A stretch of 64,000 nt of DNA from Sulfurovum sp. Lineage in GTDB: Bacteria > Campylobacterota > Campylobacteria > Campylobacterales > Sulfurovaceae. The DNA is taken from NCBI RefSeq assembly GCF_015493435.1, contig NZ_WGDD01000032.1:26-64025 (forward strand). The letters run 5' to 3'. Every line of letters begins with the position of its first letter. Within the stretch, counting starts at the first letter, position 1. Below the pieces are notes generated by a model that was not told where the DNA came from, did no database searches, and worked only from the letters and a program-made list of their open reading frames with translations. Shown piece after piece: positions 13,932 to 47,040 of this stretch. The translations under genes and the position numbers were made by a program.

Positions 13932-13947
13932 TTTTCTCTCTTTGTTT

Positions 13948-15514: not shown

Positions 15515-15603
15515 GGTGCGTAAGACGCACCGCTTCATCCGGTCCGTGTAAAAAATAACACTAACCGGAAGGATCAAAAAAGGTGCGTAGATACGCACCC
15601 TAC
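15511..15603. repeat. Inverted pair of GTAG-type REP palindromes
   Basis: GTAGGGTGCG-TAAGA-CGCACC (15511-15531) and inverted GGTGCG-TAGATA-CGCACCCTAC (15582-15603). Confidence 0.8.
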
Positions 15604-15612
15604 GATGGCGTT

Positions 15613-17103
15613 TTAATAACCTGAAGCCGAGATCATATAGTATATATAGGATACCAGCGGCTGTACATAGAAGATCGCTGCCACCGTAGCCAGTGTCGCA
15701 AACCCTACCACAGCCATCAAAGGCTTGGATGAATTATATTGTACTGTATCGACATCTTTTACCGGTTCTTTCAGGAACATGTAGACAACAAGCTTCAAAT
15801 AGTAGTATGCCGCGATCGCTGAGTTAAGTCCCATCACGACAGCCAGCCATACATACCCTGAATTCACCGCTGCCTGCATGACATAAATTTTACCCCAGAA
15901 TACCGAGAATGGAGGAACACCTGCAAGAGACAGCATAAAGATCGCCATGATCACTGCACCGACAGGCCGGATACTGATCATACCGGCAAATTTTTCATAC
16001 GGATGGTCATATCGTGCATCGAATCTTCTGACTTTATGTCTCGAAATCCAAAGCATCGTGAAGGCTCCCAGGTTGGTAAACATAAAGAGTGCATAGTAGA
16101 AGAAAATAGCTGTCGTACCTTCTGTTGTATCAAGTGCCAGTGCTGCAATAATAAAACCGGCATGGGAAATAGACGAATACGCAAGCATACGTTTGACATC
16201 TTCCTGAACCAGGGCCATGACATTTGCCAGTGTCATGGTAAGTACGGCAAGTACGATAATCACGATACGGACCCATTCAACACCAAGGTCGATATACATA
16301 CCGAAAATCCTGATGGAAACAACAAAGGCTGCTACCTTTGGAACTACTGACATATATCCTGCCAACGGTGCAGACGCACCTTCATACACATCCGGTGCCC
16401 ATGTATGGAACGGGAAGAGAGAAAGCTTAAAGGCAAAGGCCACCAGCAGAAGCACAGCAGATCCGAAGACTGCTATCATCAATCCTGTTTCATTCATACG
16501 TGCAGCCAATACATCCGCTACCCTGTAGAGTTCAATAGAACCTGTCAATCCGTAGATCACGGCTGACCCCATAGCAAAGAAGCCGGCTGCCAGCGCACCC
16601 ATAGTGAAATATTTCACTGCCGCCTCATAGGAATTGCTTCTGTTGTGCAGTGCAATAAGCGTATAGAGTGCAAGTGATGCTGTTTCCAGACCGACAAAGA
16701 TCAGAATCAGGTTGTCACTTGCCACCATAAACTGGAATCCCGCAACCATGAACAGGAACAGTGCAAAGAACTCCGGATAGGAGTACTCATGAAAACGCTT
16801 TGAAGTCAGCGCCAACGGTGTAAATATAATGGAAGCTACAATGATCAGAAGCTGCGAAACGATGGAAACCCCATCGATCAGCATAACATCAAAGAAACCC
16901 CGTTCATTCACATTGAGCCCCAGTGTGGCACCAAAATCAACCACCAGTACCAGAATGGTCAGCATCACATAGAGAGACTTGTGCAGTTTCCCATTGATCA
17001 GGTCAAGTATCAGGATAATCAAACCACCGGCAACTGCAATAAGCATTGGTGCGAGTGTAATGAGATTAAGACTTTCCAAACTTACATTAATAGGCTGTAA
17101 CAT
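15613..17103 (-). CDS. nuoN: NADH-quinone oxidoreductase subunit N
   Basis: EAAVKYF, FKLSLFPFHTWAPDVYEGA, KRMLAYSSISHAG. Confidence 0.96.
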   Translation of the reverse strand: MLQPINVSLESLNLITLAPMLIAVAGGLIILILDLINGKLHKSLYVMLTILVLVVDFGATLGLNVNERGFFDVMLIDGVSIVSQLLIIVASIIFTPLALTSKRFHEYSYPEFFALFLFMVAGFQFMVASDNLILIFVGLETASLALYTLIALHNRSNSYEAAVKYFTMGALAAGFFAMGSAVIYGLTGSIELYRVADVLAARMNETGLMIAVFGSAVLLLVAFAFKLSLFPFHTWAPDVYEGASAPLAGYMSVVPKVAAFVVSIRIFGMYIDLGVEWVRIVIIVLAVLTMTLANVMALVQEDVKRMLAYSSISHAGFIIAALALDTTEGTTAIFFYYALFMFTNLGAFTMLWISRHKVRRFDARYDHPYEKFAGMISIRPVGAVIMAIFMLSLAGVPPFSVFWGKIYVMQAAVNSGYVWLAVVMGLNSAIAAYYYLKLVVYMFLKEPVKDVDTVQYNSSKPLMAVVGFATLATVAAIFYVQPLVSYIYYMISASGY

Positions 17104-18638
17104 TACTTAACCTCCCCTCTGTTTAGTGTTGTTTTAGAAACTTTGATCATATCTTTTGCCTCTTGGGTGATCGCTTTGGCATCCATAAATGCCAACATTG
17201 CCTTCACAGAATTATCAATCGGCGCAAGTACCGGTTTGGGGTAAACCCCAAGCCAGACAACGATAAGAACCAAAGGTACCAGAGACCATGTCTCTTTACT
17301 GCTTAAATCTTTAAGTGTTTTATTGGCTTCATTGGTCACCGGCCCGAAGAAACTCTTTTTAAACAACGTGAGCATATAGATCGCCCCGATGATAATGGAT
17401 GTACCTGCAAGAGCAGTCAATACCGGTGATACATGATAGAATCCGAGCAGAACCAGGAATTCACCGACAAATCCGATCGTTAGCGGCAAGCCGACGGAAG
17501 CCATCAGCATAATACCGAAGATCACGGCATACTTTGGCATCACCGATGCCAATCCGCCGAATTCACTCATCAGCTTTGTATGTCTTCTGTCATAGATCAC
17601 GCCGACAAGCATAAATAATGCACCCGACACGATACCGTGTGAGAGCATCTGGAAAACAGAACCACTGATACCTTCGGCATTCATGGCAAAAATACCGAGC
17701 ATGATAATACCCATATGAGACACAGATGAATACGCAATAACCTGTTTCATATCTTTCTGTGCATAGGCGACCATTGCTGTATAGATGATCATTACAATGG
17801 AAAGCGCAGCGATCGGCATGATTGCCATGACAGAGGCATCAGGGAACATGGGAAGTGAGAATCTTACGAAACCGTATGTACCCATTTTCAACAGGACTGC
17901 TGCAAGAATGACGGAACCGATGGTAGGTGCCTGACCGTGTGCATACGGCAGCCAGGTATGGAACGGGAACATCGGAACCTTGATCGCAAAACCGACGAAG
18001 AAGGCAGCAAAGAGCCAAAGCTGATAATTGACCGGAAGCACCAGTGCATACCAGTCTGTAATAGCAAAACTCCATACCCCGGTAAGATTATGGTAAACAT
18101 AGGCTACGAACAGCATACCTACCAGCATGATCAGGGACCCCGTAAAGGTATACAGGAAGAACTTCACAGCCGCATAAACTCTGAGCGGTCCGCCCCATGC
18201 ACCGATAATATAAAGCATCGGCACAAGCGAAAGTTCCCAGAAAAGGTAGAAGATAATCGCATCAAGGGAAACAAAGACCCCTACCATTGTCATTTCAAGG
18301 AAAAGCAATGTGATGATCATATTTTTGATATTCTCTGTAATACTCATACTCATCATACCGATCAGCGTCATCAATGTCGCCATCAGAATAATGAAGAGAG
18401 AAATACCGTCTACACCAAGATAATAACTGATACCAAAATCAGGAATGATAGGAATCAGTTCGACAAACTGCATTCCTGCATTTGCCGTATCAAAACTGAA
18501 CCACAGCCAGACAGAGAGAAGAAACTCGATCGCTGCTACAGTAATACCGTAGGCACGTGCACTCTCTTTATCTACAACAAATCCCAACAATCCAGCGATT
18601 GCAGGAAAAAACACCAATATACTTAAAATATTTTCCAT
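17103..18638 (-). CDS. nuoM: NADH-quinone oxidoreductase subunit M
   Basis: LGVDGISL, FWELSLVPM, KVPMFPFHTWLP.AH, LLKMGTYG. Confidence 0.96.
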   Translation of the reverse strand: MENILSILVFFPAIAGLLGFVVDKESARAYGITVAAIEFLLSVWLWFSFDTANAGMQFVELIPIIPDFGISYYLGVDGISLFIILMATLMTLIGMMSMSITENIKNMIITLLFLEMTMVGVFVSLDAIIFYLFWELSLVPMLYIIGAWGGPLRVYAAVKFFLYTFTGSLIMLVGMLFVAYVYHNLTGVWSFAITDWYALVLPVNYQLWLFAAFFVGFAIKVPMFPFHTWLPYAHGQAPTIGSVILAAVLLKMGTYGFVRFSLPMFPDASVMAIMPIAALSIVMIIYTAMVAYAQKDMKQVIAYSSVSHMGIIMLGIFAMNAEGISGSVFQMLSHGIVSGALFMLVGVIYDRRHTKLMSEFGGLASVMPKYAVIFGIMLMASVGLPLTIGFVGEFLVLLGFYHVSPVLTALAGTSIIIGAIYMLTLFKKSFFGPVTNEANKTLKDLSSKETWSLVPLVLIVVWLGVYPKPVLAPIDNSVKAMLAFMDAKAITQEAKDMIKVSKTTLNRGEVK

Positions 18639-18649
18639 CTATCTTCTCC

Positions 18650-20548
18650 TTACACAAACATCGCTGAAATGACTGCGATAACCAATAGGAATACAGAACC
18701 CACAGCCATCCAATTCAGATAGTTGGACAGGTTACCTGTCTGCATCTTTCTTGAAGCATCCCCGCTCTTATAGAGGAATTTGGCAATGCCGTCAACGGTT
18801 GCATCTACAATTTTCATATCTACATCTTTCCACATCATTTCCGAGAGCATCGCATACGGCTTTGTAATGATTGCTTCATACAGATTTGGAATATAGTACT
18901 GATTTGCCAAAAGTTTGTATGTGAAACTGTTCTCCAGTTTCTTGTCTCTTTTGAGTCCCTTATAGTACTTTCTGTATGCCAGTACAATACCGCCTACCGC
19001 AAAGGCAAGGACAATCAGTCCCAGCATCATTGAAAGATGGTGTGTATGCTCACTCATATGGTAGTCTGGCAGCAGCTTGGTTACAAAGTGCTCAAACGTA
19101 CCCTGTGCAAAACCGGCTATCACTGCAAGTATTGCCAACGGTGACATTGCAATAAGAACATATTTATACATTTCATGCGGATGAATACCGAATGCTTTGT
19201 ATCTTTCGTCCCCTTCGAAAGTAAGGAAGACCTGTCTGAAGCTGTAGAATGCAGTCATACCTGCCGTCACGACAAGGATAACCCATAGAAACAATGTTCC
19301 TTCATTGAAGGCCGTTTCGATGATGGCATCTTTGGAGAAGAAACCTGCAAACGGAGGAATTCCTGCCAAAGCCAGGGAAGCGACTCCCATATAGATATAA
19401 GTCCACTTCATCGCTTTTTTCAATCCACCCATTTTGAAAATGTCAAGTTCATCATGCATTGCATGCATCACGTTACCTGCACCCAGGAAGAGCAGTGCTT
19501 TGAAGAAAGCGTGTGCCGCGAGGTGGAAAAGTGCGATCCAGTAAGCTCCCAGACCTGCCGCCGCAAACATATATCCCAGCTGAGAAAGTGTCGAGAAAGC
19601 GATAATACGCTTCAAGTCTCTGTTGACCAGTGCCATGGATGCCGCAAAGAAAGCGACAAAGGTACCCAGGGCCGCAATAAAATAGCTTACCTCCGGCGTC
19701 ATGGAAAAGAGCGGATTCGCTCTGATCACAAGGAATACACCGGCAGTTACCATGGTGGCCGCATGGATCAATGCAGAAACCGGCGTCGGGCCTTCCATTG
19801 CATCTGTCAGCCAGGTATGGAGCGGGAACTGTGCCGATTTACCCATTGCTCCGATAAAGAGTGCGATCGCTGCCGCATTCAGTACCGAGCCGCTCAAATC
19901 AGGAAGTGCCGCGAACACCACATCATACTGCAGACTGCCAACATTCCAGTAAAGGATGAAAAGTCCGATCAGCATTCCAAGGTCAGCGATACGGTTCATA
20001 ATAAATGCTTCATTCGCTGCCCAGGATGGAGAAATAGAGGGATTCTCTTCTCTGGATACATCTTCTTTGTGATACCAGAAACCGATCAGAAGCCATGAAC
20101 AGACCCCCACACCTTCCCATCCGATGAAAAGTCCGGCAAAGTTATCTGACATAACAAGGATCATCATCGAAAAAACGAAGGCTGACAGGTATGAGAAGAA
20201 TCGGTTGAAACTCTTATCATGGTCCATATATCCTATAGAATAAACATGAACCACTGTCGAAACAAGTGTGACAACGGTCATCATGGTCACGGAAACCTGA
20301 TCCACCACAAAACCGAACGGAATATGAAGATCACCTGCAGAGATCCAATCCATCATTGTAACATGTATGCCTGCCCCTGTGGTCCAGACATGAAATGCCA
20401 GCATAGCCGAAGCACAGAACGATGCAAAAAGCAGCAGAGACGCTACAATACCTACAAATGTTTGTTTTGGACTCATTCCGAACAAAGCTGCGAACAGCGA
20501 ACTCGCAAACGGAGCAAACAGTGCTATATATACTAAAGTTTCCATCAT
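18650..20548 (-). CDS. nuoL: NADH-quinone oxidoreductase subunit L
   Basis: GWEGVG, GKSAQFPLHTWL.DAMEGPTPVSALIHAATMVTAG, HAFFKALLFL. Confidence 0.97.
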   Translation of the reverse strand: MMETLVYIALFAPFASSLFAALFGMSPKQTFVGIVASLLLFASFCASAMLAFHVWTTGAGIHVTMMDWISAGDLHIPFGFVVDQVSVTMMTVVTLVSTVVHVYSIGYMDHDKSFNRFFSYLSAFVFSMMILVMSDNFAGLFIGWEGVGVCSWLLIGFWYHKEDVSREENPSISPSWAANEAFIMNRIADLGMLIGLFILYWNVGSLQYDVVFAALPDLSGSVLNAAAIALFIGAMGKSAQFPLHTWLTDAMEGPTPVSALIHAATMVTAGVFLVIRANPLFSMTPEVSYFIAALGTFVAFFAASMALVNRDLKRIIAFSTLSQLGYMFAAAGLGAYWIALFHLAAHAFFKALLFLGAGNVMHAMHDELDIFKMGGLKKAMKWTYIYMGVASLALAGIPPFAGFFSKDAIIETAFNEGTLFLWVILVVTAGMTAFYSFRQVFLTFEGDERYKAFGIHPHEMYKYVLIAMSPLAILAVIAGFAQGTFEHFVTKLLPDYHMSEHTHHLSMMLGLIVLAFAVGGIVLAYRKYYKGLKRDKKLENSFTYKLLANQYYIPNLYEAIITKPYAMLSEMMWKDVDMKIVDATVDGIAKFLYKSGDASRKMQTGNLSNYLNWMAVGSVFLLVIAVISAMFV

Positions 20549-20850
20549 TACCCCTTCATATTTGCAAGATCATCAAGATCGAGACTACCGTGTTTTTTAT
20601 ACAATACGATCAGTATACCCAGACCAACGGCCACTTCACTCGCAGCGATCGCGATAATAAAGAATGCAAACATTTGACCCGTAAGATCATTATAGTAGTG
20701 TGAAATCGCTGCAAATGCGATATTGACCGCATTGAGCATCACTTCCGTTGCGAAGAAAAGCATTAAAAGATTTCTTCTTCTCAATACACCCATCAACCCG
20801 ATAGAGAAGATCAGTGCTGAGATGACAAGATAGTGAGTTAAACCTATCAT
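20548..20850 (-). CDS. nuoK: NADH-quinone oxidoreductase subunit K
   Basis: EVMLNAVN, AASEVAVGL; position in operon. Confidence 0.96.
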   Translation of the reverse strand: MIGLTHYLVISALIFSIGLMGVLRRRNLLMLFFATEVMLNAVNIAFAAISHYYNDLTGQMFAFFIIAIAASEVAVGLGILIVLYKKHGSLDLDDLANMKG

Positions 20851-21410
20851 TTTACATCCTTTTTTATCAAGATTTCATCATCTACACAAGTGTCCTTGGT
20901 GAGACTCTGATCCATTTTCTTACCGGCAAGGATAATCCCTGAGATCATCGCTACCAATAACATAACCGCTGCAACTTCAAACGGGATAAGATACTTGGTA
21001 AAGAGTACGATACCGACATCCTGTGCATTCCCGACACCTTCATGCATCGGATAAAGCGCCTGGATCGATTCATTGTAGATCGGTGCAGCGAACATCAGTA
21101 CCAATGACAGGGCGCTCAAACCGCCCAATACAAAGATCAAGGCAGGATTGGTATTTTTTTCTTTGATCGATTTGGTTGAATCAAAGAACATCATTGCAAA
21201 CGAATAAAGTGCCATAATGGCACCGACATATACAATGAGCTGAACCACACCAAGGAAATCTGCCCCCAGAATAAAGAAAAAGCCTGAGATCAGCACCATC
21301 CCTGCAGCAAGCGATGTCATGGCATACAAGACATTCTTGCTAAAGACCGTGATGAGGAAAAGTCCTATTGTTAAAGCCGAAAATAGGTAAAAGGCTATTG
21401 TTTCATACAT
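20847..21410 (-). CDS. nuoJ: NADH-quinone oxidoreductase subunit J
   Basis: QLIVYVGAIMAL, YLIPFEVAAVMLLVA. Confidence 0.95.
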   Translation of the reverse strand: MYETIAFYLFSALTIGLFLITVFSKNVLYAMTSLAAGMVLISGFFFILGADFLGVVQLIVYVGAIMALYSFAMMFFDSTKSIKEKNTNPALIFVLGGLSALSLVLMFAAPIYNESIQALYPMHEGVGNAQDVGIVLFTKYLIPFEVAAVMLLVAMISGIILAGKKMDQSLTKDTCVDDEILIKKDVK

Positions 21411-21421
21411 ATCTGCTCCTC

Positions 21422-22045
21422 CTAATACGCTAATGGCGTTTTTTTGATATTTTCATCAGCATTCGGTGAGACAGCGCCAAATCCGTCATATTCCTGCTGA
21501 AGGTTGAGTTTGTCGATCGGTGTCAACATATCTTCAAAAAGTGAGAAACTCGCTCTCTGCTCGGAAGCTGTTTCATATCTCGGTCCATGTACGATCGCCA
21601 GTTCCGGACATACTTCCGCACAATACCCGCAGAAGATACAGCGTCCGAAGTTGATCGTATATTCACTGACTTCTTTTCTCTGGTTTTCATCGTATCTTGT
21701 ATCCATTGTGATACAGTTTGAAATACAGATCTTTTCACACAATCCGCATCCGATACATCTGTAATGACCGCTTTCAAGCAGTCTGAGCATATCATGGATC
21801 GCTCTGTATCTCGGAGAGATCGGCAGTTTTTCAAACGGATATTTTACTGTATGCATCTGTCCTTTGAACAGTGCATTGATCATTTCCCGCATTGTGACCC
21901 AAAGTCCTACAAGCAGTTCGCCCTTGAACGTCCTGTCTAAGACCTGCTTGAACTTACCCATGCCTGTTTCGGGACTCTGCCCAAGATCAAGCATCTTATA
22001 GTTCTGTGTACCTACATTTCTATTTTTAAATTGTTCTAAACCCAT
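21422..22045 (-). CDS. nuoI: NADH-quinone oxidoreductase subunit I
   Basis: CIGCGLCEKIC and CIFCGYCAEVCP; YPFEK. Confidence 0.96.
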   Translation of the reverse strand: MGLEQFKNRNVGTQNYKMLDLGQSPETGMGKFKQVLDRTFKGELLVGLWVTMREMINALFKGQMHTVKYPFEKLPISPRYRAIHDMLRLLESGHYRCIGCGLCEKICISNCITMDTRYDENQRKEVSEYTINFGRCIFCGYCAEVCPELAIVHGPRYETASEQRASFSLFEDMLTPIDKLNLQQEYDGFGAVSPNADENIKKTPLAY

Positions 22046-22054
22046 ACCTGCTCC

Positions 22055-23086
22055 TTACACCATCATCACAATACCTGTGATCACTATATTGATCACAGCT
22101 ATCGGCATCAATACTTTCCAGCACAGCCACATCAACTGATCCGGTCTCACATGCGGCCATGCTGCTCTGACCCATAGCATCAGGAAGAAAAAGAACCCTA
22201 CCTTCAGAATGATCGTCAGCCAACCTATACCCACTTCGCTGTAACCACCGAGGAAAACAACTGCCGCAATGATAGAAATAGTGATCATATTGGCATATTC
22301 ACCAATAAAGAACATACCCCATCTCATACCCGAATACTCTGTTGCATATCCGGAAACCACTTCCGCTTCATGCTCAAGGAGGTCGAACGGTGTCCTGTTC
22401 GTCTCGGCAAACCCTGCAATAAGGAAGAGTACGAACGCAACCGGCTGCTGCCAGATAAGCCAGTGGCTGATGCCGCCTGCCTGTGCGTTATTGAAGTCAA
22501 CGAAAGAAAGTGAACCTACCAGCATGATCGGAGCCAGGATGGAAAGACCTGTCACTACTTCATAACTCAAAAACTGGATTGCCGTTCTTGCCGCACCGAT
22601 AATACCCCATTTGTTCGCCTGTGCCATACCTGCAAGCAAAGGACCATAAAGTCCTGCCGCCATCATTCCCAGCACAAAGAGAATCCCGATATTCAGGTCT
22701 GCCGCAATAGAAGGTACAAAAACACCTCCAAGCAAAGGCACCCACTCAGGAATGGTAAAGTCCGGGAATACCGGTACTGCAGCCAGCGCAATAAAGGCTG
22801 TTGCTGCCGTAATGGAGGGTGCGATCTTGAAGATAAGGGAGTTTGCATTCTGGGGGACAATATCTTCTTTGGTAAAAAGTTTGATACCATCCGCCACAAG
22901 CTGAAGCAAACCGTAGGGACCTACGTGCATAGGTCCGAGTCTTCTCTGCATGAATGCCAGTACCTTTCTTTCAATAAAAGTACCGAAACCGGCGATCGCC
23001 GCGATCACTGCCAGAATAAGGATGGCTTTAATGATAACACCGGCCGCCGTCACTTCCGGTAAATTTTGTACGAGTGTTGTTTCCAT
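22055..23086 (-). CDS. nuoH: NADH-quinone oxidoreductase subunit H
   Basis: ERKVLAFMQRRLGP, ADGIKLFTKE, ETNRTPFDL.E.E.E.V.G, EYSG. Confidence 0.97.
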   Translation of the reverse strand: METTLVQNLPEVTAAGVIIKAILILAVIAAIAGFGTFIERKVLAFMQRRLGPMHVGPYGLLQLVADGIKLFTKEDIVPQNANSLIFKIAPSITAATAFIALAAVPVFPDFTIPEWVPLLGGVFVPSIAADLNIGILFVLGMMAAGLYGPLLAGMAQANKWGIIGAARTAIQFLSYEVVTGLSILAPIMLVGSLSFVDFNNAQAGGISHWLIWQQPVAFVLFLIAGFAETNRTPFDLLEHEAEVVSGYATEYSGMRWGMFFIGEYANMITISIIAAVVFLGGYSEVGIGWLTIILKVGFFFFLMLWVRAAWPHVRPDQLMWLCWKVLMPIAVINIVITGIVMMV

Positions 23087-23087
23087 A

Positions 23088-25550
23088 TTACACCTTTCTC
23101 ATTGTTACTGTTTGATATCTGGCCGGGCCAAATAGCTCATACACGTTCTGAGCACTCTTGAAATCGGACAGTTTTGTGATATCACCGGTCATCTTCTCAT
23201 CCGCGATCACATCGACGACGATACTTCCATTCCCGAATACCACTTCCACTTTCTCTCCAAGCGCCTCAGCTTTCTCGGCACTGGCATACAGACCGAACGG
23301 TTCAAATATCTCATGTGCCTTGTCCGAGAAGTCGGAAAACTGTCTGGCCGGGTTGCACCGGTACACGATCTCGCCTTCCAGTGCTGCATGCTCATCGAAC
23401 TTCTCTACAGAAGGTGTTTTAGCCTTTCTGTTGGATGTTTTCAACAAATAACCCCTGTTCTCCGTACCGTCGTTGCTGTAACCGTTCGGCAATGCATCGA
23501 ACTCTATGGCACGGAAGCCCTTTGAAGCAGGCAGCCTGACAGTCCAGTCAACGGTCAGGCTTTCCCCTTCCTCAATGAGTTCCGAGACAAGGTCATTCAG
23601 CTCATATCCGCCGTATTCGACAGCGGCATTGGTCGGTACCACTCTCTTGGAAATATTGGTGAAGGTCCCTTCCTGCTGGTTCATCGCCGGCATATCCAAG
23701 TCTCCGTCACCCAGTGCGGAGAGTCTGAAATCGCCGATCTCGTTATATCCGATCGTATAGCCTTCGGCTTCATCATCAAGATCACAGATCAGCGCTACAC
23801 CGAGCGCATTGGCTTTTGGCGGAGCCATTACGACATCGATCTCGGAAGTCTCTTCGATCAGGGCAATGAGTTTCGCCAGGTTCTCCGCTTTGTCATGATA
23901 ATAGAAATCTTCACCGATCATCATGGAGAAGGATTCTTTTTTCTTCATCATTTTCTCAAAGGTATCTGTAAAAGTAGAAGAATTGCCGCCAAGCAGGTCT
24001 ACCAGACCGTTCTTCTCGACCGTGATCTCTTTGTCTACCATTTCAGGGACTTTCTTGGTCACTTCTTTGCTCTCGCCTGTTTCCTCATCAACCACGGTTT
24101 CAGTCACATCCTTCATCACTTTCTCTTTGATCGTCTTCGTTTCGGTCGTTTTGAAACTTGCAAGATATTCTTTCACCTCTTCAGGCAGTTTCTCTTTGTC
24201 GGCAAAAAGATCGAGTACAAGGTAAAGGGCAGCCTCTTCCAGACCCGGTTTGTGGGTAAAACACTCCACATTTTTACCAAAGCTTGGAATGAGGGTATCG
24301 GCAATCGGATGAAAATAGAGTCCCGCCCCCTTGTTCAGCTTTTGAACATTGTTGAAGGCATACTTCATCCCCGGTGCATCATTTCTGAGTGCAGAGCCAA
24401 GGGCAATGACAAAGTCACTCTTTTTCATGATTGCATCGTTGTCCGTCGTCCAGAATCTATTGCCTGAAGCTTTTTGATAATAGCCGAGGAACTTCTGGAA
24501 AGCGCGTACTTCAGGATTATAAAGTTTCAATCCCCTCTTTTCCTTGAGCGTCTGGAGCATCAAGGCTTCTTCATTGGTGATCACAGAATTGAAACGTACG
24601 GTCTGCGCATTTTTGAATGCTTCCAGTGCTTTTGCGAATGCTGCTTCATCTTTTGTAACATCAGTATTTTCAAAATCATAGGCAAAACGTGCTGCACCGT
24701 CCAATGAAACATAGTTCCACTCATTGGTCACACGGAAGATCTTTTCATTTCTGTTCTCAATGGAAGCAGGTTTCACTTCGTAATAAATCTGGAAACCGTC
24801 CGAAGAATGTGCAGAAACTGCGGGAATCCTCTTGAGGTCCCACGCGTTTGATTTATACTGGAAATCTCTGCTGACCAGTGCACCTACCGGACAGACAGCC
24901 GCACATTCGCCACAGTCCGAACAGTTCGTATATTCTGTTCCGTTGCTTGGTGCGATGACAGATTTCTGCAGTTTGTTCCACATTGCATAGGCATCTTTCG
25001 GCATCGTTTCTTTAAAGCCTTTGTCAAGTGCCTCTCCGCCTCTTTTTACGGTAGTAAGTGCCGCATCTCCGATCATATCTTTACAGACGGTCGTACAACG
25101 TTCACATACGATACAGAGACCTGCATCGTAATGCAGTACGGAACTCCAGTTCTTGACCTCTCTTTTGGTATCCGGAATCATGTAGGACTGTGAATCCACA
25201 CCGAGTTCAAGCGTATAATTCTGAAGTTCGCACTCTCCGCTCTTGTCGCAGACGCCGCACTGAAGCGGGTGGTTCACGTCATAAACTTCCATGATCGCAC
25301 GACGCTCTTCAAGAATGTTGGGTGTATCGACCGTGATCTCCATACCCTCCTTGACTTTTGCGTTACATGCATATACCTGTTTTCCGTCGGCCTCTACCAG
25401 ACAAAGACGGCACGCCAGTGTTGGCGAACATCGTGTCAAATAACAGATCGCGGGAATAAAAATATCGTTGGCACGTGCGGCATTGAGGATATATTCACCC
25501 TCTTTGACCGCGACTTCCCTGCCATCGATTTTAATATTGACTGTACTCAT
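23088..25550 (-). CDS. nuoG: NADH-quinone oxidoreductase subunit G, Campylobacter type (extra 4Fe-4S motif, degenerate N7)
   Basis: CYL..CSPTLACRLC, HPLQCGVCDKSGEC.LQ, CIVCERC...C, CSDCGECAAVCP; start set at MSTVNI. Confidence 0.93.
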   Translation of the reverse strand: MSTVNIKIDGREVAVKEGEYILNAARANDIFIPAICYLTRCSPTLACRLCLVEADGKQVYACNAKVKEGMEITVDTPNILEERRAIMEVYDVNHPLQCGVCDKSGECELQNYTLELGVDSQSYMIPDTKREVKNWSSVLHYDAGLCIVCERCTTVCKDMIGDAALTTVKRGGEALDKGFKETMPKDAYAMWNKLQKSVIAPSNGTEYTNCSDCGECAAVCPVGALVSRDFQYKSNAWDLKRIPAVSAHSSDGFQIYYEVKPASIENRNEKIFRVTNEWNYVSLDGAARFAYDFENTDVTKDEAAFAKALEAFKNAQTVRFNSVITNEEALMLQTLKEKRGLKLYNPEVRAFQKFLGYYQKASGNRFWTTDNDAIMKKSDFVIALGSALRNDAPGMKYAFNNVQKLNKGAGLYFHPIADTLIPSFGKNVECFTHKPGLEEAALYLVLDLFADKEKLPEEVKEYLASFKTTETKTIKEKVMKDVTETVVDEETGESKEVTKKVPEMVDKEITVEKNGLVDLLGGNSSTFTDTFEKMMKKKESFSMMIGEDFYYHDKAENLAKLIALIEETSEIDVVMAPPKANALGVALICDLDDEAEGYTIGYNEIGDFRLSALGDGDLDMPAMNQQEGTFTNISKRVVPTNAAVEYGGYELNDLVSELIEEGESLTVDWTVRLPASKGFRAIEFDALPNGYSNDGTENRGYLLKTSNRKAKTPSVEKFDEHAALEGEIVYRCNPARQFSDFSDKAHEIFEPFGLYASAEKAEALGEKVEVVFGNGSIVVDVIADEKMTGDITKLSDFKSAQNVYELFGPARYQTVTMRKV

Positions 25551-25551
25551 A

Positions 25552-27810
25552 TTAATTTCCTGCCCTTTCAAAATCTAACCTCTTAAATCTATAAGAGGAT
25601 ACCAAAGCTCCACTTAATCCCATGTCAAATGTCGGATTAAGGGCGATGGTTCCTTTCATGGTTGTGTCGATCTTAAACAGTCGATCGAAATCCACACCAT
25701 CGATAGCGAACGTGATACGGTCACCATCTTTCAGTCTGGTTGCCGTAGCGAACTGCTGTGAACCCAGAAGTACGGCTTCGTCTTCCAACAGGGATGACTT
25801 GGCTGTAAAAGCCGAGAACTGTTCGACAGGATCGCAGCGGTATACTACAGCTCCGTCATAGCCTTCGAGCTCTTCCACTTCGTCAAAATTTCTGCTGACA
25901 GAAACCTTTCGGGCCTTCAGCAGATAGCCTCTGTGCTCAGTGCCTACACTGTCAAAATAATCCGGAAGCGCATCGAATTCAATCGCTTCAAAACCCTTCT
26001 CTTCCGGCAGTATTTTCGTATATTCAATGGTATATTCCGCATCCATTCCCAAAACATTGGCGACATCATTCAAAACATAGCCCCCATACGGAAGGGCTGC
26101 ATTCATAGGTACGACACGCTTGTCCACTGTAGTAAGCGTACCCTCCTGCTGATTCATTGCCGGCATGTCAAGATCACCGCCGCCCAATGCGGAAAGGGTA
26201 AAGTCGGCAGGCATATTGTAACCGACCGTAGCACCTTCTGCTTCATCATCAAGATCACAGACGAGTGAAATACCCATGGCATTACCCGCTGGAGGGACAC
26301 AGACCACATTGAAACCGGCATACTGTTCAAGCAGTGCTGCCAGTTTCGCGATCTGCTCTGCTCTGGGATGGGCATAAAGGTCAGAGCCGACTACCAAAGA
26401 GAATCCGCTCTTCTTCAACAGAGATTTTCTCAGCGCTTCAAGCTCCTCTTCCCCTACATTGGTCTCGGCTGACAGATAGCCGATATCGAGATCATCCAGG
26501 AAAGAACGTACCGCTTTGGGCAATTCTGTTTCTTTAAGCAGTGTATCGGCCAGCAAAGCGGCCACACCCTCTTCGCTTCCCACTTCATATTTAATGAACT
26601 GTGTCACGATATTCTGTATCTCTTTGTCTTCGATCGGATGCATATAGGCGACTCTGGCCTGATGCCACTTGCTTGCCATATTGACATGATATTTCACCGC
26701 TGGTGCATCGTCATTGATTCGCGAACCGAAAATGATCACCGCTTTTGACTCGGAAATACGTTTAAGGGTACCGCCATAGAGATGTTTTCCGGTAATATTG
26801 CCGTAGGCCTGCATAAATTTCTGGTAGGCTCGCGCTTCGGGGGAGACCAGTTTGAAACCGAGCTTCTCTTTGAGTTTCTGAAGGATCAGCGCTTCTTCAT
26901 TCGAAGTCTGGTTCGACAGAAGGACCGTATCTGCTTTGTTGAAAGCTTCAACCGCTTTTGCAAAAGCCTCTTTGTCTTTTGTCACACCTTCATTGGCATA
27001 GTCAAAACCGAATCTGCCTGCGCCGCAGAGAGTACTGAATTCAAACTCGTTGGTCACACGGTAGATCCTGTCCTGCTTCACTTCGTAATACATCTGGCAT
27101 CCGCCGCCGCAATGCGGACAGGCACTCGGAATCTTCGTCAACTCCCAGGCATTGGCCGTGTATTTGAACTTCGTACTGACCAGTGCCCCGACAGGGCAGA
27201 CCGCTGCTGCTTCACCCAGAGAAGCGTAGTTCTTCTCTTTTTTGGTATTGACAATGGTTGATCCGTATCCGCCGAACTTGATCTTGAGCGCTTCATCCCC
27301 CGTGATCTCGGTCGAAACACGTACACACTTCTCACACATGATACAGAGTGCAGGGTCGTAGGAAACATGTCCCCAGTTCTCTACCGGCCTGTTCTGGTCT
27401 CTTGCCGTGAAGTCCTGTGCCTCGAGGTTGAACTCCATGGTCTTGTTCTGAAGGTCGCATTCCCCACTTTTGTCACAGACACCGCATTCGAGCGGATGGT
27501 TGACATTATAGAGCTTCATAATGCTCTGGCGTTCCTCAAAAAGGGCATCGCTGTCAGTAGTAATGACTGCGCCGTCCGTCGCTTTTTCCTGGCAGGAGAG
27601 GATCATCCCTTCCACACCTTCGACCTCTACCACACACATACGGCATGAACCTATCGGCTGGACCTTGGTCAAATAGCACATGGTCGGGACATAAATATCA
27701 TGCTCTCTGGCGATCTCCAGTATGGTTTTGCCAAAAGTACTTTTGAACTCCTGACCGTTAATGGTAACGCTGATCTCTTTCCCGGTATTCATAGAATTAT
27801 GTGCACTCAT
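25552..27810 (-). CDS. Second NuoG-like Fe-S subunit (N7 motif intact)
   Basis: GSCRMC, HPLECGVCDKSGEC.LQ, CIMCEKC, VCPVGAL, CPHCGGGC...LCGAGRF. Confidence 0.9.
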   Translation of the reverse strand: MSAHNSMNTGKEISVTINGQEFKSTFGKTILEIAREHDIYVPTMCYLTKVQPIGSCRMCVVEVEGVEGMILSCQEKATDGAVITTDSDALFEERQSIMKLYNVNHPLECGVCDKSGECDLQNKTMEFNLEAQDFTARDQNRPVENWGHVSYDPALCIMCEKCVRVSTEITGDEALKIKFGGYGSTIVNTKKEKNYASLGEAAAVCPVGALVSTKFKYTANAWELTKIPSACPHCGGGCQMYYEVKQDRIYRVTNEFEFSTLCGAGRFGFDYANEGVTKDKEAFAKAVEAFNKADTVLLSNQTSNEEALILQKLKEKLGFKLVSPEARAYQKFMQAYGNITGKHLYGGTLKRISESKAVIIFGSRINDDAPAVKYHVNMASKWHQARVAYMHPIEDKEIQNIVTQFIKYEVGSEEGVAALLADTLLKETELPKAVRSFLDDLDIGYLSAETNVGEEELEALRKSLLKKSGFSLVVGSDLYAHPRAEQIAKLAALLEQYAGFNVVCVPPAGNAMGISLVCDLDDEAEGATVGYNMPADFTLSALGGGDLDMPAMNQQEGTLTTVDKRVVPMNAALPYGGYVLNDVANVLGMDAEYTIEYTKILPEEKGFEAIEFDALPDYFDSVGTEHRGYLLKARKVSVSRNFDEVEELEGYDGAVVYRCDPVEQFSAFTAKSSLLEDEAVLLGSQQFATATRLKDGDRITFAIDGVDFDRLFKIDTTMKGTIALNPTFDMGLSGALVSSYRFKRLDFERAGN

Positions 27811-27811
27811 A

Positions 27812-29821
27812 TTACACCGCCACCATTGAAATATAGTAACATCGCATACATCTTTCCGCTTCTGCGATCGCTTCTTCGCCTGTAAATCCGAGATTGACTT
27901 CTTTGTTGTTGCTCTTTCTTTCGTCTACACCGAGTTTTTCACTTTCGGCTCTCGGAAGTCCCGGCATCCAGCCTGTGATCTTTTCCTTCTTGTCATACAC
28001 CCTGAGTTTGGCAAGATGGTCTTCCATGATCTCGTCATCTGTCAGGGTACATTTTCCGTCATAGATATAGCGGCTGATGACCGAAGCGGCACGCCGTGCC
28101 TGTCCCACTGCATTGACGATGGTCATAGGGCCGTACTCACAGTCACCCGCGGCAAAAAGCCCCGGACGGGAAGTCATGAAATCTTTTCCGTTCGTCAAAA
28201 TACTGTTCCAGGATGTCATTTCAAGATTCCATTCTTCAGGCAGAAGCTGTGTATCCAGTGCCTGGGAAACCGCCGGGATCAGGTAGTCACACTCGATCTC
28301 GAAGTCACCGCCTTCAATCTTGACAAGCTGTGCACGCCCGCCGTTAGGGTCCGGTACAAGCTCGAAACGGTTCACTTTGAGTTTCGTGATATTTTCACCG
28401 TCATCAAATATTTCTTCAATCGCAGAATGGAAGATAAATTCCACCCCCTCTTCGACTGCTTCATGATATTCTTCATAAGTCGTGTTGCGAATGATCGTTT
28501 TCTCATCACGGCGGTAGAGCATGATCACCTTCTTCGCGCCTTCACGAATGGAGCATCGGACGACATCCATCGAGGTAAACCCGCCGCCGACACAAACAAC
28601 AACTTTGTCTTTAAGTTCATTGGAAGCGGGTGACCCGATGTTGTATTTATGCCAGAGATTGACTTTGTCCAGCATATCGATCGCACCCCAGTAGCCGCCC
28701 ATTTTAGTGTTTTCGTTCTCAGCACGCACTTTTTTCGAAAGTCTCGCGCCAAATCCGAGCAGTGTCGCATCATATTCGGCATCGAGCTCCTTGAGACGCT
28801 CTGCATTCACTCTGTAATTATTGGTGATACTTACCGTCGGCATACTGAGTACCAGCTCAATGTCCTTGTTGTACTTGTCCACAGGCATTCTGTACTCAGG
28901 TACACCTACCGCGACTTCACCGCCATTGACAGGAAGTTCTTCAAAGATATCAACCTGTATTCCTTCGAGTGCCAGATAATATGCCGCGGTCAATCCTGCG
29001 GGACCTGCACCGACGATTGCCACTTTTTTGCCATCGTTTCTCGGAGGCTTCGGCGTTCGAGGATGCAGCCATTCAAGATCATGGTCCGTTTCATAGTCCG
29101 CACCAAGACGCTTCAGCTCCATAATAGAGATAGGTTCATCGAGGTTTGCACGCCGGCAAGCATCTTCACACGGATGGGGGCAGACACGCCCGCAGGTATG
29201 TGCCAGAGGCATGGTCTGTCTTGTCGCTGCCAAAGAATCGGTAAAGACCATATCTCTTACCCCTTCTATATAGGCGGGAATATCCACGTGTGCAGGGCAC
29301 ATATCTGTACACGGTGCAGTGACCTTGGCGATATAGTCCGTATTGCCGCCGTAATGCCTCGACGGGATCTGCAGTTCGATACAGGTATCGAACTGCGCTT
29401 CGTAATGTTCCATCAGATCAAGGATCGGTTTGGGGACTGTTTTCCCGATCTCGCATTTTGATGTAGCCATCATCGTTTTGCTGATCTCTTTAAGATGGGC
29501 TATGTCATCATGCGAACCTTCTCCTCTGGCGATCTTGTCAAGCAAATCGTACAGAATCCTGCCGCCCCATCTACCCGGTGCGCAGCGGCCGCAGGCTTCG
29601 GAATATTCCTGATACTGTGCCGCATACTTCGAAGCCAGTTCCACCGCATCGATATCTTCGTCAAAGATGGCAACACCATCCCAGCCGATGAACGCTTTGG
29701 AGTTCTTCTCCCCGTGATAGGTTTCAGGCAGTTTGAATTCGGACTGGCTCGACTCGTCAGAGGATTTACCGCGGTTGTCGATAAACTCGCCTCTCCAAGT
29801 TGAGAATACAATTCCAGACAT
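27812..29821 (-). CDS. Fe-S flavoprotein: NuoF-C-terminal-like domain fused to a GltD/SudA/NfnB-like oxidoreductase
   Basis: EACGRCAPGRWG...KCEIG; CTDMCPAH, CGRVCPHPCEDACRR; GAGPAG; GGGFTSMD...YRR; EAERCMRC. Confidence 0.88.
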   Translation of the reverse strand: MSGIVFSTWRGEFIDNRGKSSDESSQSEFKLPETYHGEKNSKAFIGWDGVAIFDEDIDAVELASKYAAQYQEYSEACGRCAPGRWGGRILYDLLDKIARGEGSHDDIAHLKEISKTMMATSKCEIGKTVPKPILDLMEHYEAQFDTCIELQIPSRHYGGNTDYIAKVTAPCTDMCPAHVDIPAYIEGVRDMVFTDSLAATRQTMPLAHTCGRVCPHPCEDACRRANLDEPISIMELKRLGADYETDHDLEWLHPRTPKPPRNDGKKVAIVGAGPAGLTAAYYLALEGIQVDIFEELPVNGGEVAVGVPEYRMPVDKYNKDIELVLSMPTVSITNNYRVNAERLKELDAEYDATLLGFGARLSKKVRAENENTKMGGYWGAIDMLDKVNLWHKYNIGSPASNELKDKVVVCVGGGFTSMDVVRCSIREGAKKVIMLYRRDEKTIIRNTTYEEYHEAVEEGVEFIFHSAIEEIFDDGENITKLKVNRFELVPDPNGGRAQLVKIEGGDFEIECDYLIPAVSQALDTQLLPEEWNLEMTSWNSILTNGKDFMTSRPGLFAAGDCEYGPMTIVNAVGQARRAASVISRYIYDGKCTLTDDEIMEDHLAKLRVYDKKEKITGWMPGLPRAESEKLGVDERKSNNKEVNLGFTGEEAIAEAERCMRCYYISMVAV

Positions 29822-30459
29822 TATTTAGCCTTTGGTTTTCTGGCAGTGTTTCTTCTGGCTGCAGATTTTTTTACAGGCTTTTTTGCGGGTGCCGGTTTTT
29901 CTGCTTTTGCAGCTGCTTCTTTGGCTGCAGCTTCCTCTGTCGCCTTTTTTTCCGCTTCGGCTTCTTCTGCCGCTGCTTTTTCTGCTTCAGCTTTGGCTTT
30001 AGCCTCTTCTTCCGCTTTTTTGGCTGCATCTTCCGCCGCTTTCTTTTCTGCTTCCGCTTTGGCAGCCGCTTCTTTGGCTTCCGCTTCCGCTGCTGCTTTT
30101 TCTGCTTCTTCTTTGGCTTTTGCCTCTTCGGCTGCTTTCAGTGCAGCGGCTTCTTCCGCCCCTTTGGCCGCTTTTTCTGCGGCCGCTTTGGCAGCAGCGA
30201 TTTTTTCGGCACGTTCTTTTCTTACTTCTTCATCCACTTTTTTGACGACGACCGTCCAGTCCACTTCATTGAACTTCAGTGAATTCATCAGATCATGCCC
30301 TGTTTCTTTAATGACATCGGCAGACTTTTGAATGGAAGAGAAATCTCCTACTTCGAAAAGGAAGATGCCTGCTTCTCCGACTTTCAGCCCGTTATCGATA
30401 AGTTCGACCATTCTGTCATAGAAATCGTCATGTAAATGTCTTAAATCATATCTTTTCAT
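29821..30459 (-). CDS. NuoX-like (Campylobacterota 'NuoE family') subunit with a long Ala/Lys/Glu-rich tail
   Basis: N-terminal ~75 aa MKRYDLR...LFEVGDFS...LMNSLKFNEVDWTVVVKK; sits directly after nuoD; AEK repeats. Confidence 0.8.
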   Translation of the reverse strand: MKRYDLRHLHDDFYDRMVELIDNGLKVGEAGIFLFEVGDFSSIQKSADVIKETGHDLMNSLKFNEVDWTVVVKKVDEEVRKERAEKIAAAKAAAEKAAKGAEEAAALKAAEEAKAKEEAEKAAAEAEAKEAAAKAEAEKKAAEDAAKKAEEEAKAKAEAEKAAAEEAEAEKKATEEAAAKEAAAKAEKPAPAKKPVKKSAARRNTARKPKAK

Positions 30460-30467
30460 AGTCTCTC

Positions 30468-31697
30468 CTATCTGTCAACTTCACCGAATACGATATTGGT
30501 AGAACCAATGATCGTAACGACGTCAGCAATATATGTTCCTACAAGAATTTCCTGCAGCAGTCCTGTATGGAAAAAACTCGGTGCTCTACACTTCAGTCTG
30601 TAAGCATACGGTTCACCTTCCGACTTAATATAGAAACCAAGCTCGCCTTTTGGTGACTCTGTCGGTACATAGACTTCACCTTTAGGCGGTCTCATACCCT
30701 GTGTGACCAGAACAAAGTGCTGCATCAACGCATAGTTCTGTGTCATGATCTCCTCTTTCGGAGCTGAAATGTACTGCGGAGCATGTGCCATCAGCTGAGG
30801 ATCGGATTCTTTGTACATCGGTACAAGCTGTCTCAAAATTCTCGTAGATTGTTTCATCTCTTCCATATAGAGTCTGTAGCGTCCGTAGGAATCACATCTG
30901 TTACTTACAGGAATGTCAAAGTCAAGTTCACCGTAAAGCTCATACGGTTCCTCTTTTCTGATATCCCAGTTGACACCGGAACCTCTGAGCATTGGTCCGG
31001 TACAGCCCCAGGAAAGCGCATCTTCTGCCGAGATAACCCCGACATCTTCCAGACGCATTTTCCAAATACGGTTTTCCTGAAGCAGAGCATTATAGGTATG
31101 CTCCAGCTCATGATCTACTTTATCACAGAATGAGATCATGTTAATGATCCAGTCTTTCGGGAGGTCAAGAGGCACTCCGCCGATACGTACAGATGAGTGG
31201 GTCAGTCTGGCACCGCAGTACTCTTCCATCAGGTCCATCGCATATTCACGTTCACGGAAAGCATACAGAAATACGGACATAGCACCGACATCGAGGGCAT
31301 GGGTTGCAATAAAGAAAAGGTGTGAGATGACTCTGTTCAATTCAAGCAGCATCGTTCTGATCACCTGTGCACGTCTTGGTGCTTCAATACCAAGCAGTTT
31401 CTCTACAGCCAGGGCATAGGCATAGTTGTTTGAAGTAGACGCGATATAGTCAAGTCTGTCCGTCGTTGGCAAAAACTCATTATAAGTCATGTTCTCTGCC
31501 ATTTTTTCGATACCTCTGTGAAGGTAACCAATATCCGGATAGGCTTTAACGACCTGTTCACCATCCAGTTCAAGAACCAGTCTTAACTGACCGTGCGCAG
31601 AAGGGTGCTGCGGACCGAAGTTGATGACCATCGTATTGTCATCTCTCTCAAAATTGAGGTTTTCAAAAAACGGGGTTAGTTTATTGGGTTGTTGCAT
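30468..31697 (-). CDS. nuoD: NADH-quinone oxidoreductase subunit D
   Basis: [37 protein letters not shown]. Confidence 0.97.
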
Positions 31698-31705
31698 CTT
31701 CTTCC

Positions 31706-32491
31706 CTACCTTCTCTCATCTAATTGCTTGGATGAATTTTTATTGTAATCCACAAGGATCGTTTCACTGTATTCGATTGGCTGCTCTTTCTCTCCTTCGG
31801 AGATATCGGCACCGAACGGTACTTCGTATCCGACTCTGGAGAAACGCTTCGTATCGTATCTGTCAATACGCGCAGGGTCTCTGTTTTCCGGCCCGATCAC
31901 ATCTCTGTACTCTTTGCCGAAGATCTTGTCGACTTCATACCATGAAGCGAATTCATCGCCATGCAGCGGATAGGTTTTCAAAAGCGGGTGTCCTTCCCAG
32001 TCATCCGGCATAAGAATACGCTTGAGGAAAGGATGGTTGTTAACCTTGATACCGAACATATCGAACATTTCACGCTCAGCAAAGTTCGCCGATCTGAAGA
32101 GCGGTTCGATGCTTTCGATCGCTTCCTTTTCTTTGATGCGTGTCACTACTCTGACTCTTTTGGCTTCGGTAATGTTGAGCAGCTGCCAGAACAGTTCGAA
32201 CTCTCCGTCCTGTGCAAGATAGTCCACGGCGGACTGCTCGGAACACTGCGTATAGCCGCACTCTTCTTTAAGGGTTTTCATGACATCAAAATTATCTGTT
32301 GATTTTATGTGTATGACAAGCTGACCGACAGAGACATAGGACTCTTTGGCTTTTCTGCCCAATGCTTTGACGACATCGGCAAAATGGCTTCCTGCCTCTA
32401 CTTCTGTCTGCGGCACACGCGGCGCGACCCAGTATCTGTCCGTATAATAGGACTTTTTCTGTACATTGTCTTTGGGAGTATATTTTCTCAT
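31706..32491 (-). CDS. nuoC: NADH-quinone oxidoreductase subunit C
   Basis: [29 protein letters not shown]. Confidence 0.95.
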
Positions 32492-47039: not shown

Positions 47040-47040
47040 T

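Follow-up and report, generated by a model that had tools for sequence, protein, structure and literature searches.

The nuo (complex I) operon of Sulfurovum sp. (assembly GCF_015493435.1, contig NZ_WGDD01000032.1) encodes, in the slot of NuoF, a flavoprotein of 669 amino acids (aa), here termed FLAV, that joins the C-terminal domain of NuoF to a permuted GltD-like module with predicted sites for flavin adenine dinucleotide (FAD), nicotinamide adenine dinucleotide phosphate (NADPH) and two [4Fe-4S] clusters. Its gene lies at 27812..29821 on the minus strand of the 64,000-nucleotide stretch of this contig that was analysed, hereafter the window. We hold with moderate confidence that FLAV acts as a non-bifurcating, SfrB-type NADP(H) input/output module that replaces NuoEF in a non-canonical complex I. 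Sulfur-oxidising Campylobacterota that run the reductive tricarboxylic acid (rTCA) cycle rank amongst the main primary producers of vents and sulfidic waters, and they must draw both NADPH and reduced ferredoxin from high-potential electron donors; for the supply of NADPH, FLAV is the foremost candidate.

Domain architecture and cofactor sites

Pfam assigns three domains to FLAV: NADH_4Fe-4S, the NuoF C-terminal domain (PF10589; residues 66-145, expectation value (E) 2e-19), the GltD/DPD-type iron-sulfur domain Fer4_20 (residues 168-247, E 8e-23) and Pyr_redox_2 (residues 265-575, E 3e-26). Complex1_51K (PF01512), the domain of NuoF that binds flavin mononucleotide (FMN) and NADH, gives no match in FLAV with Pfam, and of the NCBIfam NuoF model TIGR01959 only the last ~115 positions (295-408) align. 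When the N-terminal half of NuoF was compared with the 64-kb window by tblastn, the sole match joined NuoF residues 262-377 to FLAV residues 31-148, and a tblastn search of the window with canonical NuoE found no NuoE. The absence of an FMN/NADH-binding NuoF domain, which the original prediction had read from the sequence, is thus borne out by both Pfam and tblastn. What is left of NuoF is the end of the SLBB domain and the four-helix N3 domain (residues 31-148; 29378..29731), delimited by Pfam, TIGR01959 and tblastn. This remnant is followed, likewise on the minus strand, by the Fer4_20 domain (29081..29320; Pfam and alignment to the Caldicellulosiruptor (Csac) NfnA, 9bov_A), a two-Rossmann FAD/NADPH module (residues 265-575; 28097..29029; Pfam, alignments and fold search) and a C-terminal tail with the motif C658-x2-C661 (residues 627-669; 27815..27943), which was recognised from alignment to NfnB, StnC and NfnA, from its invariance and from its secondary structure.

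The FAD site comprises VGAGPAGL at residues 269-276, with GxGxxG at 271-276, and R311, and the NADPH site comprises GGGFTSMD at 412-419 (GGGFTS at 412-417) followed by Y436-R437-R438; all the motifs quoted in the original prediction (N3-like, FAD and GGGFTSMD...YRR) can be read in FLAV. The NADPH loop of the Campylobacterota proteins diverges from that of other members, with GGGFTS as opposed to GGGNTA and a segment after YRR that is two residues longer.

The Fer4_20 region holds only six cysteines (171, 175, 210, 214, 218 and 222), of which C210 is an extra, non-invariant one; two [4Fe-4S] clusters need eight ligands. The C-terminal tail (…AEAERC658MRC661; query residues 632-661) aligns to residues 13-42 of Thermotoga maritima NfnB, the segment that directly precedes the NfnB motif 'HPCxxxCP', and it is colinear with the C-terminal segments of the Caldicellulosiruptor NfnA, the Thermococcus NfnA (9n5u_A) and the Sporomusa StnC (8oh5_C). 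These alignments indicate that the GltD module of FLAV has the circular permutation of the StnC/NfnA(Bfu) group, and that C658 and C661 are the predicted source of two ligands of the distal [4Fe-4S] cluster. In the Csac NfnA the FAD-proximal cluster A7 is liganded by Cys108, Cys147, Cys151 and Lys170 (PMC11829005), to which C175, C214, C218 and K237 of FLAV align. The FAD-proximal cluster of FLAV would accordingly be held by C175, C214, C218 and K237, and the distal one by C171, C222, C658 and C661. The GltD-type 2x[4Fe-4S] domain that had been proposed for this protein therefore stands, with two of its eight ligands coming from the tail.

The AlphaFold2 model of FLAV, built on an 89-sequence alignment, is a confident one, with a predicted local distance difference test score (pLDDT) of 90.8 and a predicted template modelling score (pTM) of 0.89; its final beta-strand spans residues 663-668. 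Amongst 25 diverse family sequences that are 30-70% identical, C77, C80, C123, C171, C175, C214, C218, C222, C658, C661, R311 and Y436-R437-R438 are invariant, and K237 is kept in at least 90%. The Tyr-Arg-Arg triad is also present in nearly all of 150 representatives, namely the 150 best 50%-identity clusters out of 1.84 billion proteins.

Clade assignment

Two characters separate FLAV from the bifurcating NfnB proteins. The position of K237 is occupied by Glu in T. maritima NfnB (4ylf_B) and in the Pyrococcus Xfn/NfnL (5vj7_A), and the CxxC motif of NfnB/NfnL is N-terminal, in a non-permuted arrangement, whereas that of FLAV is C-terminal. Nearly all of the 150 representatives combine Lys237 with the C-terminal CxxC. 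The closest solved relatives by both sequence and fold are NfnA of NfnABC (9bov_A, 9n5u_A) and StnC (8oh5_C), with sequence matches of E 1e-80 to 1e-66 and Foldseek E values of ~1e-42; the fold neighbours of the FLAV model in the PDB rank as NfnA(Bfu), StnC, NfnB/NfnL, GltD and DPD, and all of these structural neighbours use NADPH. FLAV is thus a member of the clade with a circular permutation and a Lys ligand that includes StnC and NfnA(NfnABC), and not of the Glu-type NfnB clade.

K170 of StnC is a functionally important cluster ligand and the StnC FAD has been found experimentally to be non-bifurcating (PMC10482914); in StnC and in NfnA of NfnABC, whose FAD likewise does not bifurcate, the flavin ends a linear iron-sulfur wire and takes up hydride from NADPH (PMC10482914 section 9, PMC11829005). 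Membership of the permuted Lys-type clade argues against a bifurcating flavin in FLAV. The original prediction had envisaged an NADPH-linked and possibly bifurcating module and had proposed a check of the bifurcating-flavin residues. Conserved motifs and relatives make the NADPH link well supported, but flavin-based bifurcation is not supported, given the Lys-type clade and the operon content described below; at the residues in question FLAV has K237 where NfnB/NfnL has Glu, and its R311 also occurs in non-bifurcating enzymes.

A three-cysteine N3-like site

The N3-like site of FLAV reads C77-G-R-C80-A-P-G83 ... C123, with Gly in place of the third Cys, so that three of four cysteines are kept, as the original prediction had noticed. 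A76, C77, C80, G83, C123 and G126 are present in all of the 122 Campylobacterota sequences compared. Sequences with Gly83 from other lineages have an extra Cys at position 76 (74 of 75) and at position 126 (70 of 75), and relatives with Cys83 carry the canonical four-Cys N3 motif. The Desulfuromonadales and Deferribacter forms thus make up for the missing third Cys with C76, C126 or both, which the Campylobacterota lack; by this comparison only the Campylobacterota form is left with three Cys and nothing to compensate.

Because the three cysteines are invariant, a cluster is probably still bound here; it could be a [3Fe-4S] cluster, or a [4Fe-4S] cluster whose fourth ligand is external or a residue other than Cys. 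E75, W85 and E124 are invariant and lineage-specific to Campylobacterota, and one may speculate that one of them serves as the fourth ligand. C147 was considered as a replacement and rejected, as it is Cys in only 101 of the 122 Campylobacterota sequences and is not conserved elsewhere.

FLAV in the nuo operon

The open reading frame (ORF) of FLAV begins with ATG and sits within an operon of the order nuoABCD-NuoX-FLAV-NuoG1-NuoG2-nuoHIJKLMN, counted here as 14 genes on the minus strand. Upstream of FLAV lie nuoA (32991-33380), nuoB (32491-33009), nuoC (31706-32491), nuoD (30468-31697) and, in the nuoE slot, the gene of a NuoX-like subunit (29821..30459); downstream follow NuoG1 (25552..27810; 752 aa), an extra NuoG paralogue, NuoG2 (23088..25571; 827 aa) and nuoH, I, J, K, L, M and N (15613..23086). 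The start codon of FLAV overlaps the stop of the NuoX-like gene by 1 nt (TAATG) and a 1-nt gap separates its own stop from the start of NuoG1, an arrangement by which FLAV is predicted to be translationally coupled within the operon. Both the position of the gene amidst nuo genes and its tight spacing agree with the original prediction; the strand is corrected to minus. The operon ORFs covered by Pfam and NCBIfam scans (nuoD, NuoX, FLAV, NuoG1 and NuoG2) or matched by tblastn synteny all proved to be Nuo subunits or FLAV, and an NfnA/NfnS-type [2Fe-2S]/FAD partner was not found amongst the gene-sized ORFs of the operon (15613-33380).

The order nuoABCD-NuoX-FLAV-NuoG1-NuoG2-nuoHI is identical at all five other Campylobacterota loci compared (Nitratifractor, Sulfuricurvum, Sulfurimonadaceae and two Campylobacterales metagenome-assembled genomes (MAGs)), and the Sulfurimonadaceae and Sulfuricurvum orthologues, 68% identical to the window FLAV, are fully syntenic. 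More than 120 orthologues with 84-93% identity carry the name Sulfurovum. These orthologues and the shared gene order at the five loci tell us that FLAV is not a chance occurrence.

NuoG paralogues and the NuoX-like subunit

NuoG1 and NuoG2 are 42% identical and are monophyletic against SfrA-like partners in all of 200 bootstraps, which points to a duplication within the lineage. The same result led us to reject the idea that NuoG1 is an imported SfrA recruited together with FLAV. No Cys motif is missing from either paralogue in Nitratifractor, Sulfuricurvum and Sulfurimonadaceae, those of the extra [4Fe-4S] cluster and of N7 included. In the window NuoG1 is without the four Cys of the extra [4Fe-4S] cluster (S166, Y195, L198 and A201) and NuoG2 without the four N7 Cys (S253, S256, F260 and D291), and the two paralogues of this genome have lost complementary cluster sites. 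NuoG2 matches the NCBIfam NuoG model PRK08493 over its full length; no close NuoG2 homologue was found in the PDB, where the best match is Aquifex NuoG over the N-terminal 300 residues only.

The NuoX-like subunit contains a 74-aa PF16514 domain (E 3e-38), is homologous to the 76-aa PDB entry 2lxr, 'NADH dehydrogenase I subunit E' (E 2e-23), and continues into a low-complexity tail of ~135 aa rich in Ala, Lys and Glu; the whole protein is free of Cys.

The FLAV family and its gene contexts

The combination of an N3 domain with a permuted GltD module, in proteins of 635-685 aa, also occurs outside Campylobacterota. At least 30 clusters at 50% identity align across FLAV residues 1-669, and the sources amongst the matches listed include Desulfuromonas, Desulfuromonadaceae, Deferribacter autotrophicus, Desulfomonilaceae, Acidulodesulfobacterium, Syntrophobacterales, Pelobacter, Sutterella, Aminicenantales, Bacteroidetes and a Loki archaeon; the genome scan for the family listed 600 stretches, and these taxa are a sample and not a census. 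Automatic names of the homologues include 'formate dehydrogenase (NADP+) beta subunit', many of them given by the Joint Genome Institute (JGI). That the partner proteins are true formate dehydrogenases is not supported, as all fall below the cut-off for the formate dehydrogenase alpha subunit and score better as NuoG.

A 1034-aa protein (P0140) and an 826-aa gene product on a 1.17-Mb contig (L003) consist of a full NuoF, with its FMN domain, fused to the same GltD module, which is consistent with the ~650-aa form having arisen through loss of the FMN domain. The L003 fusion is encoded at 1-5530 on the minus strand together with a NuoE-like protein and a split NuoG/molybdopterin protein, divergent from a FLAV-type nuo operon at 6110-19953; long and truncated forms of the flavoprotein thus stand side by side in one genome. 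A further variant of 962 aa (P0122; a cluster of eight, with contigs of up to 190 kb) is 53% identical to the window FLAV and has a low-complexity, repeat-like insertion of ~300 aa between the N3 domain and the GltD module.

FLAV always adjoins a NuoG-like gene (loci L001-L019 and others), and this pair is met in three contexts. It is free-standing, FLAV followed by the NuoG-like gene, in Deferribacter (L001), Desulfuromonas thiophila (L002), Desulfuromonadales (L009), Pelobacter and many others. A second type, nuoABCD-FLAV-NuoG-nuoHIJKL without NuoX and with one NuoG, is found in a Syntrophobacterales MAG (L010; 3492-13900) and in the L003 operon named above. The third, with NuoX and two NuoGs, is the arrangement of the Campylobacterota.

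In a neighbour-joining tree built on Kimura distances over 482 columns of the GltD region, the Campylobacterota proteins are monophyletic in 100 of 100 bootstraps, on a long branch, and are sister to the Desulfuromonadales pair-type proteins in 79 of 100. The flavoproteins of the second context (L003, L010) fall in a clade other than that of the Campylobacterota and have the canonical four-Cys N3 motif. A one-residue insertion before C77 and Gly83 are common to the Campylobacterota, Desulfuromonadales-type and Deferribacter-type proteins; as an independent character they agree with the tree, and together they suggest that the family was probably recruited into nuo operons at least twice, one of these events in a Syntrophobacterales-type lineage.

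We tentatively regard the family as SfrB-like, a link made through literature descriptions and a seven-residue peptide derived from a primer. According to the cited literature the SfrAB of Geobacter sulfurreducens is a soluble NADPH:Fe(3+) oxidoreductase with a GltD-like NADPH subunit, SfrB, and a NuoG-like SfrA encoded in the order sfrB-sfrA; a role in NADP regeneration during acetate oxidation is ascribed to it, and a Deferribacter homologue that adjoins a molybdopterin-oxidoreductase-like gene is annotated sfrB. A published sfrB primer translates to GRTIVDN, which resembles, over these seven residues only, the N-terminal family motif G..[IV][IV]DNR (GREVVDN in Desulfuromonas, GEFIDN in the window). 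The exact peptide GRTIVDN occurs in no sequence searched, and the name SfrB is absent from the 120 names listed for relatives of the Desulfuromonas homologue.

Comparison with known systems

That a protein of this kind takes the place of NuoF is already known, both as an observation and as a hypothesis. McNichol and Sievert (2019, bioRxiv 10.1101/717884) described Suden_1824 of Sulfurimonas as an NfnB homologue that replaces NuoF, with a Tyr-Arg-Arg NADPH site and two NuoG, proposed a reverse or bifurcating complex I for the rTCA cycle, and stated that this composition is universally conserved in Sulfurimonas and Sulfurovum; through that preprint, Weerakoon and Olson are cited as having already noted a non-canonical NuoEF and two NuoGs in chemoautotrophic Campylobacteria. 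The guess in the original prediction that similar operons might have been recorded in free-living Campylobacterota was therefore right, and the literature searched yielded no biochemical or structural work on this subunit, as it had also supposed for biochemistry. The window FLAV is the orthologue of Suden_1824 in the same operon slot, and nothing essential differs between the two. The preprint compared Suden_1824 with T. maritima NfnB only; the C-terminal domain from NuoF, the circular permutation, the Lys ligand and the three-Cys site go unmentioned there. New here are the placing of FLAV in the permuted, Lys-type clade of StnC/NfnA(Bfu)/SfrB-like proteins, which speaks against a bifurcating flavin, the retained NuoF docking domain with its uncompensated three-Cys site, the Desulfuromonadales sister group and the separate presence of the family in nuo operons beyond the Campylobacterota.

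The Desulfuromonadales proteins, which we take to be SfrB-like, share with FLAV a length of ~650 aa, the N3 domain with permuted GltD module and the NuoG-like gene next door; however, they and the Deferribacter forms are only ~41% identical to it and are encoded as a two-gene pair outside nuo operons, and FLAV is encoded within one. StnC (Sporomusa ovata StnABC, 8oh5) and NfnA (NfnABC/Bfu, 9bov, 9n5u) share with FLAV the permutation, the C-terminal CxxC, the Lys ligand and the FAD/NADPH residues. Their module is an insertion in a polypeptide of NuoG type, is partnered with FMN-containing StnAB/NfnBC and passes electrons to the bifurcating FMN subunit (StnB/NfnB), whereas FLAV is a separate protein with a NuoF N3 domain ahead of the module, encoded in the operon of a quinone-reducing membrane complex; Pfam and tblastn found no FMN subunit in the window. 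NfnB, NfnL and SudA (4ylf_B, 5jca_L; ~33% identity) have in common with it the GltD fold, FAD, Tyr-Arg-Arg and two [4Fe-4S] clusters; apart from the CxxC position and Glu ligand given above, NfnB/NfnL differs in needing an NfnA/NfnS partner and in having no NuoF-derived domain. Canonical NuoF shares the operon slot and the C-terminal four-helix N3 domain, but FLAV has lost the FMN/NADH domain and the third N3 Cys and has gained a FAD/NADPH module of 500 aa. The complex I of Campylobacter jejuni and Helicobacter pylori resembles that of the window in its NuoX-like subunit and PRK08493-type NuoG; the slot after NuoX is taken by NuoY in those organisms and by FLAV and the extra NuoG here.

Proposed mechanism

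In the mechanism that we favour, NADP(H) would exchange hydride with the FAD of FLAV, which would act as an ordinary two-electron/one-electron converter. Electrons would pass singly from FAD to the Lys-liganded proximal [4Fe-4S] cluster, to the distal [4Fe-4S] cluster and to the three-Cys N3-like cluster, and from there through NuoG, NuoI and NuoB to quinone. Only the N3-carrying, NuoG-contacting part of NuoF has been kept in FLAV, and this domain would be the adaptor that docks it onto a NuoG, a role that we infer from where N3 lies in the canonical enzyme. As the operons of the second context (L003, L010) have a single NuoG with which FLAV must work, docking in the manner of NuoF is the simplest arrangement.

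In a sulfur-oxidising rTCA autotroph the enzyme would run mostly in reverse, as a menaquinol:NADP+ reductase driven by the proton-motive force (pmf) and making NADPH. The standard potentials of menaquinone and NADP+ are about -75 mV and -320 mV respectively, and at these values reverse electron transfer is feasible at 4 H+ per 2 e-; reverse operation feeding the rTCA cycle is a plausible physiology. With a non-bifurcating StnC/SfrB-type flavoprotein, simple NADPH:quinone activity and its pmf-driven reverse would be expected and bifurcation activity probably not. The family also bears on how complex I gains input modules, occurring as it does in the nuo operons of an unrelated lineage and keeping of NuoF only the domain predicted to dock onto NuoG.

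Several points weigh against this mechanism. The sequences themselves show the domains of FLAV, its ligand residues, clade, operon position and conservation; membership of complex I, the order of the clusters with the N3-like one beside the distal one, NADPH specificity and the direction of operation are all deduced. Electrons in StnC and NfnA do not pass directly between the GltD module and the domain that comes before it in sequence, and by this precedent the adjacency of the N3-like domain is no proof of wiring to the distal cluster. The three-Cys N3-like site of all Campylobacterota may be altered or non-functional, a simple linear wire does not account for the second NuoG, and a linear mechanism alone gives no reduced ferredoxin, which the rTCA cycle also needs.

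Alternative explanations

FLAV and NuoG1 might instead form a separate, soluble or loosely attached SfrAB-like NADP(H):ferredoxin/flavodoxin enzyme that is merely co-transcribed, with a complex I of NuoX, NuoG2 and the core depending on ferredoxin or flavodoxin as in C. jejuni; in reverse, complex I would make reduced ferredoxin or flavodoxin and FLAV-NuoG1 would pass part of it to NADP+, which would supply both reductants that the rTCA cycle requires. We think this doubtful but take it seriously: the sister clade consists of stand-alone pairs outside nuo operons (Desulfuromonas, Desulfuromonadales, Deferribacter), the constant neighbour of FLAV is a NuoG-like gene, NuoG2 alone matches PRK08493 in full, NuoX is homologous to 2lxr and flavodoxin is the substrate of complex I in C. 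jejuni (Weerakoon and Olson 2008, cited after bioRxiv 10.1101/717884). It fits poorly with the mid-operon position of FLAV and NuoG1, their 1-nt overlap and 1-nt gap and an order kept in five of five genera, with NuoG1 being a duplicate of NuoG2 internal to Campylobacterota rather than an imported SfrA, and with the L003 and L010 operons, where the sole NuoG comes right after FLAV. A more novel reading is that the two NuoGs build a branched N-module, one arm terminating in the SfrB-type NADP(H) flavoprotein and the other, made up of NuoX/NuoG with the exposed three-Cys N3-like cluster or an extra NuoG cluster, terminating in a ferredoxin/flavodoxin site, the family having been recruited independently in the Syntrophobacterales-type lineage. 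Taken as a whole we consider it rather unlikely; were it true, a single pmf-driven enzyme would deliver both rTCA-cycle reductants.

Bifurcation or confurcation, suggested by the original prediction and by McNichol and Sievert, would have the FAD or a NuoG junction split electron pairs, such that a reverse complex I reduces NADP+ and ferredoxin together and, in the forward direction, NADPH reduces quinone and ferredoxin. The homology to NfnB/NfnL, the conserved FAD residues including R311 (R201 of NfnL) and Tyr-Arg-Arg speak for it (bioRxiv 10.1101/717884), the two NuoG paralogues and the unusual three-Cys cluster leave room for a branched iron-sulfur network, and the rTCA cycle requires low-potential electrons. 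Even so we judge it improbable, since R311, being conserved in non-bifurcating enzymes too, does not discriminate, FLAV falls in the Lys-type clade with its non-bifurcating FAD (PMC10482914, PMC11829005), the operon holds no NfnA-like [2Fe-2S]/FAD partner and FMN is missing. Very improbable, finally, is another substrate pair (for example NADH in place of NADPH) or descent from an NADP-dependent formate dehydrogenase of which FLAV would be a remnant: the JGI names of many homologues, the molybdopterin-oxidoreductase domains of the partner proteins and the divergent Campylobacterota NADPH loop hint at it, but NuoG1, NuoG2 and the partners fall short of the cut-off for formate dehydrogenase alpha subunits and do better as NuoG, and the phosphate-binding Tyr-Arg-Arg triad is invariant.

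Other genes in the window

Outside the operon the window holds several genes of separate interest. Close to the upstream end of the nuo region, 34106-35857 (minus) encodes an AAA ATPase of 583 aa that includes a winged-helix domain, and a small ORF divergent from nuoA (33564-33965, plus) encodes a hydrophobic segment at the N-terminus and a CRSGSRS motif that by eye resembles the active-site loop of a rhodanese. A 539-aa protein with a cadherin-type domain is encoded at 9417-11036 (minus), and the region 45501-54449 (minus) encodes an acyl-CoA synthetase-like AMP-binding enzyme, a FadL/TodX-type outer-membrane transporter and an AcrB-type efflux pump of the resistance-nodulation-division (RND) class with its outer-membrane factor. 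At 37042-40255 (plus) lie genes of a phosphotransferase system, an HPr/Enzyme I fusion of 610 aa and an EIIC/EIIB protein of 477 aa, which are unexpected in a presumed sulfur-oxidising chemolithoautotroph.

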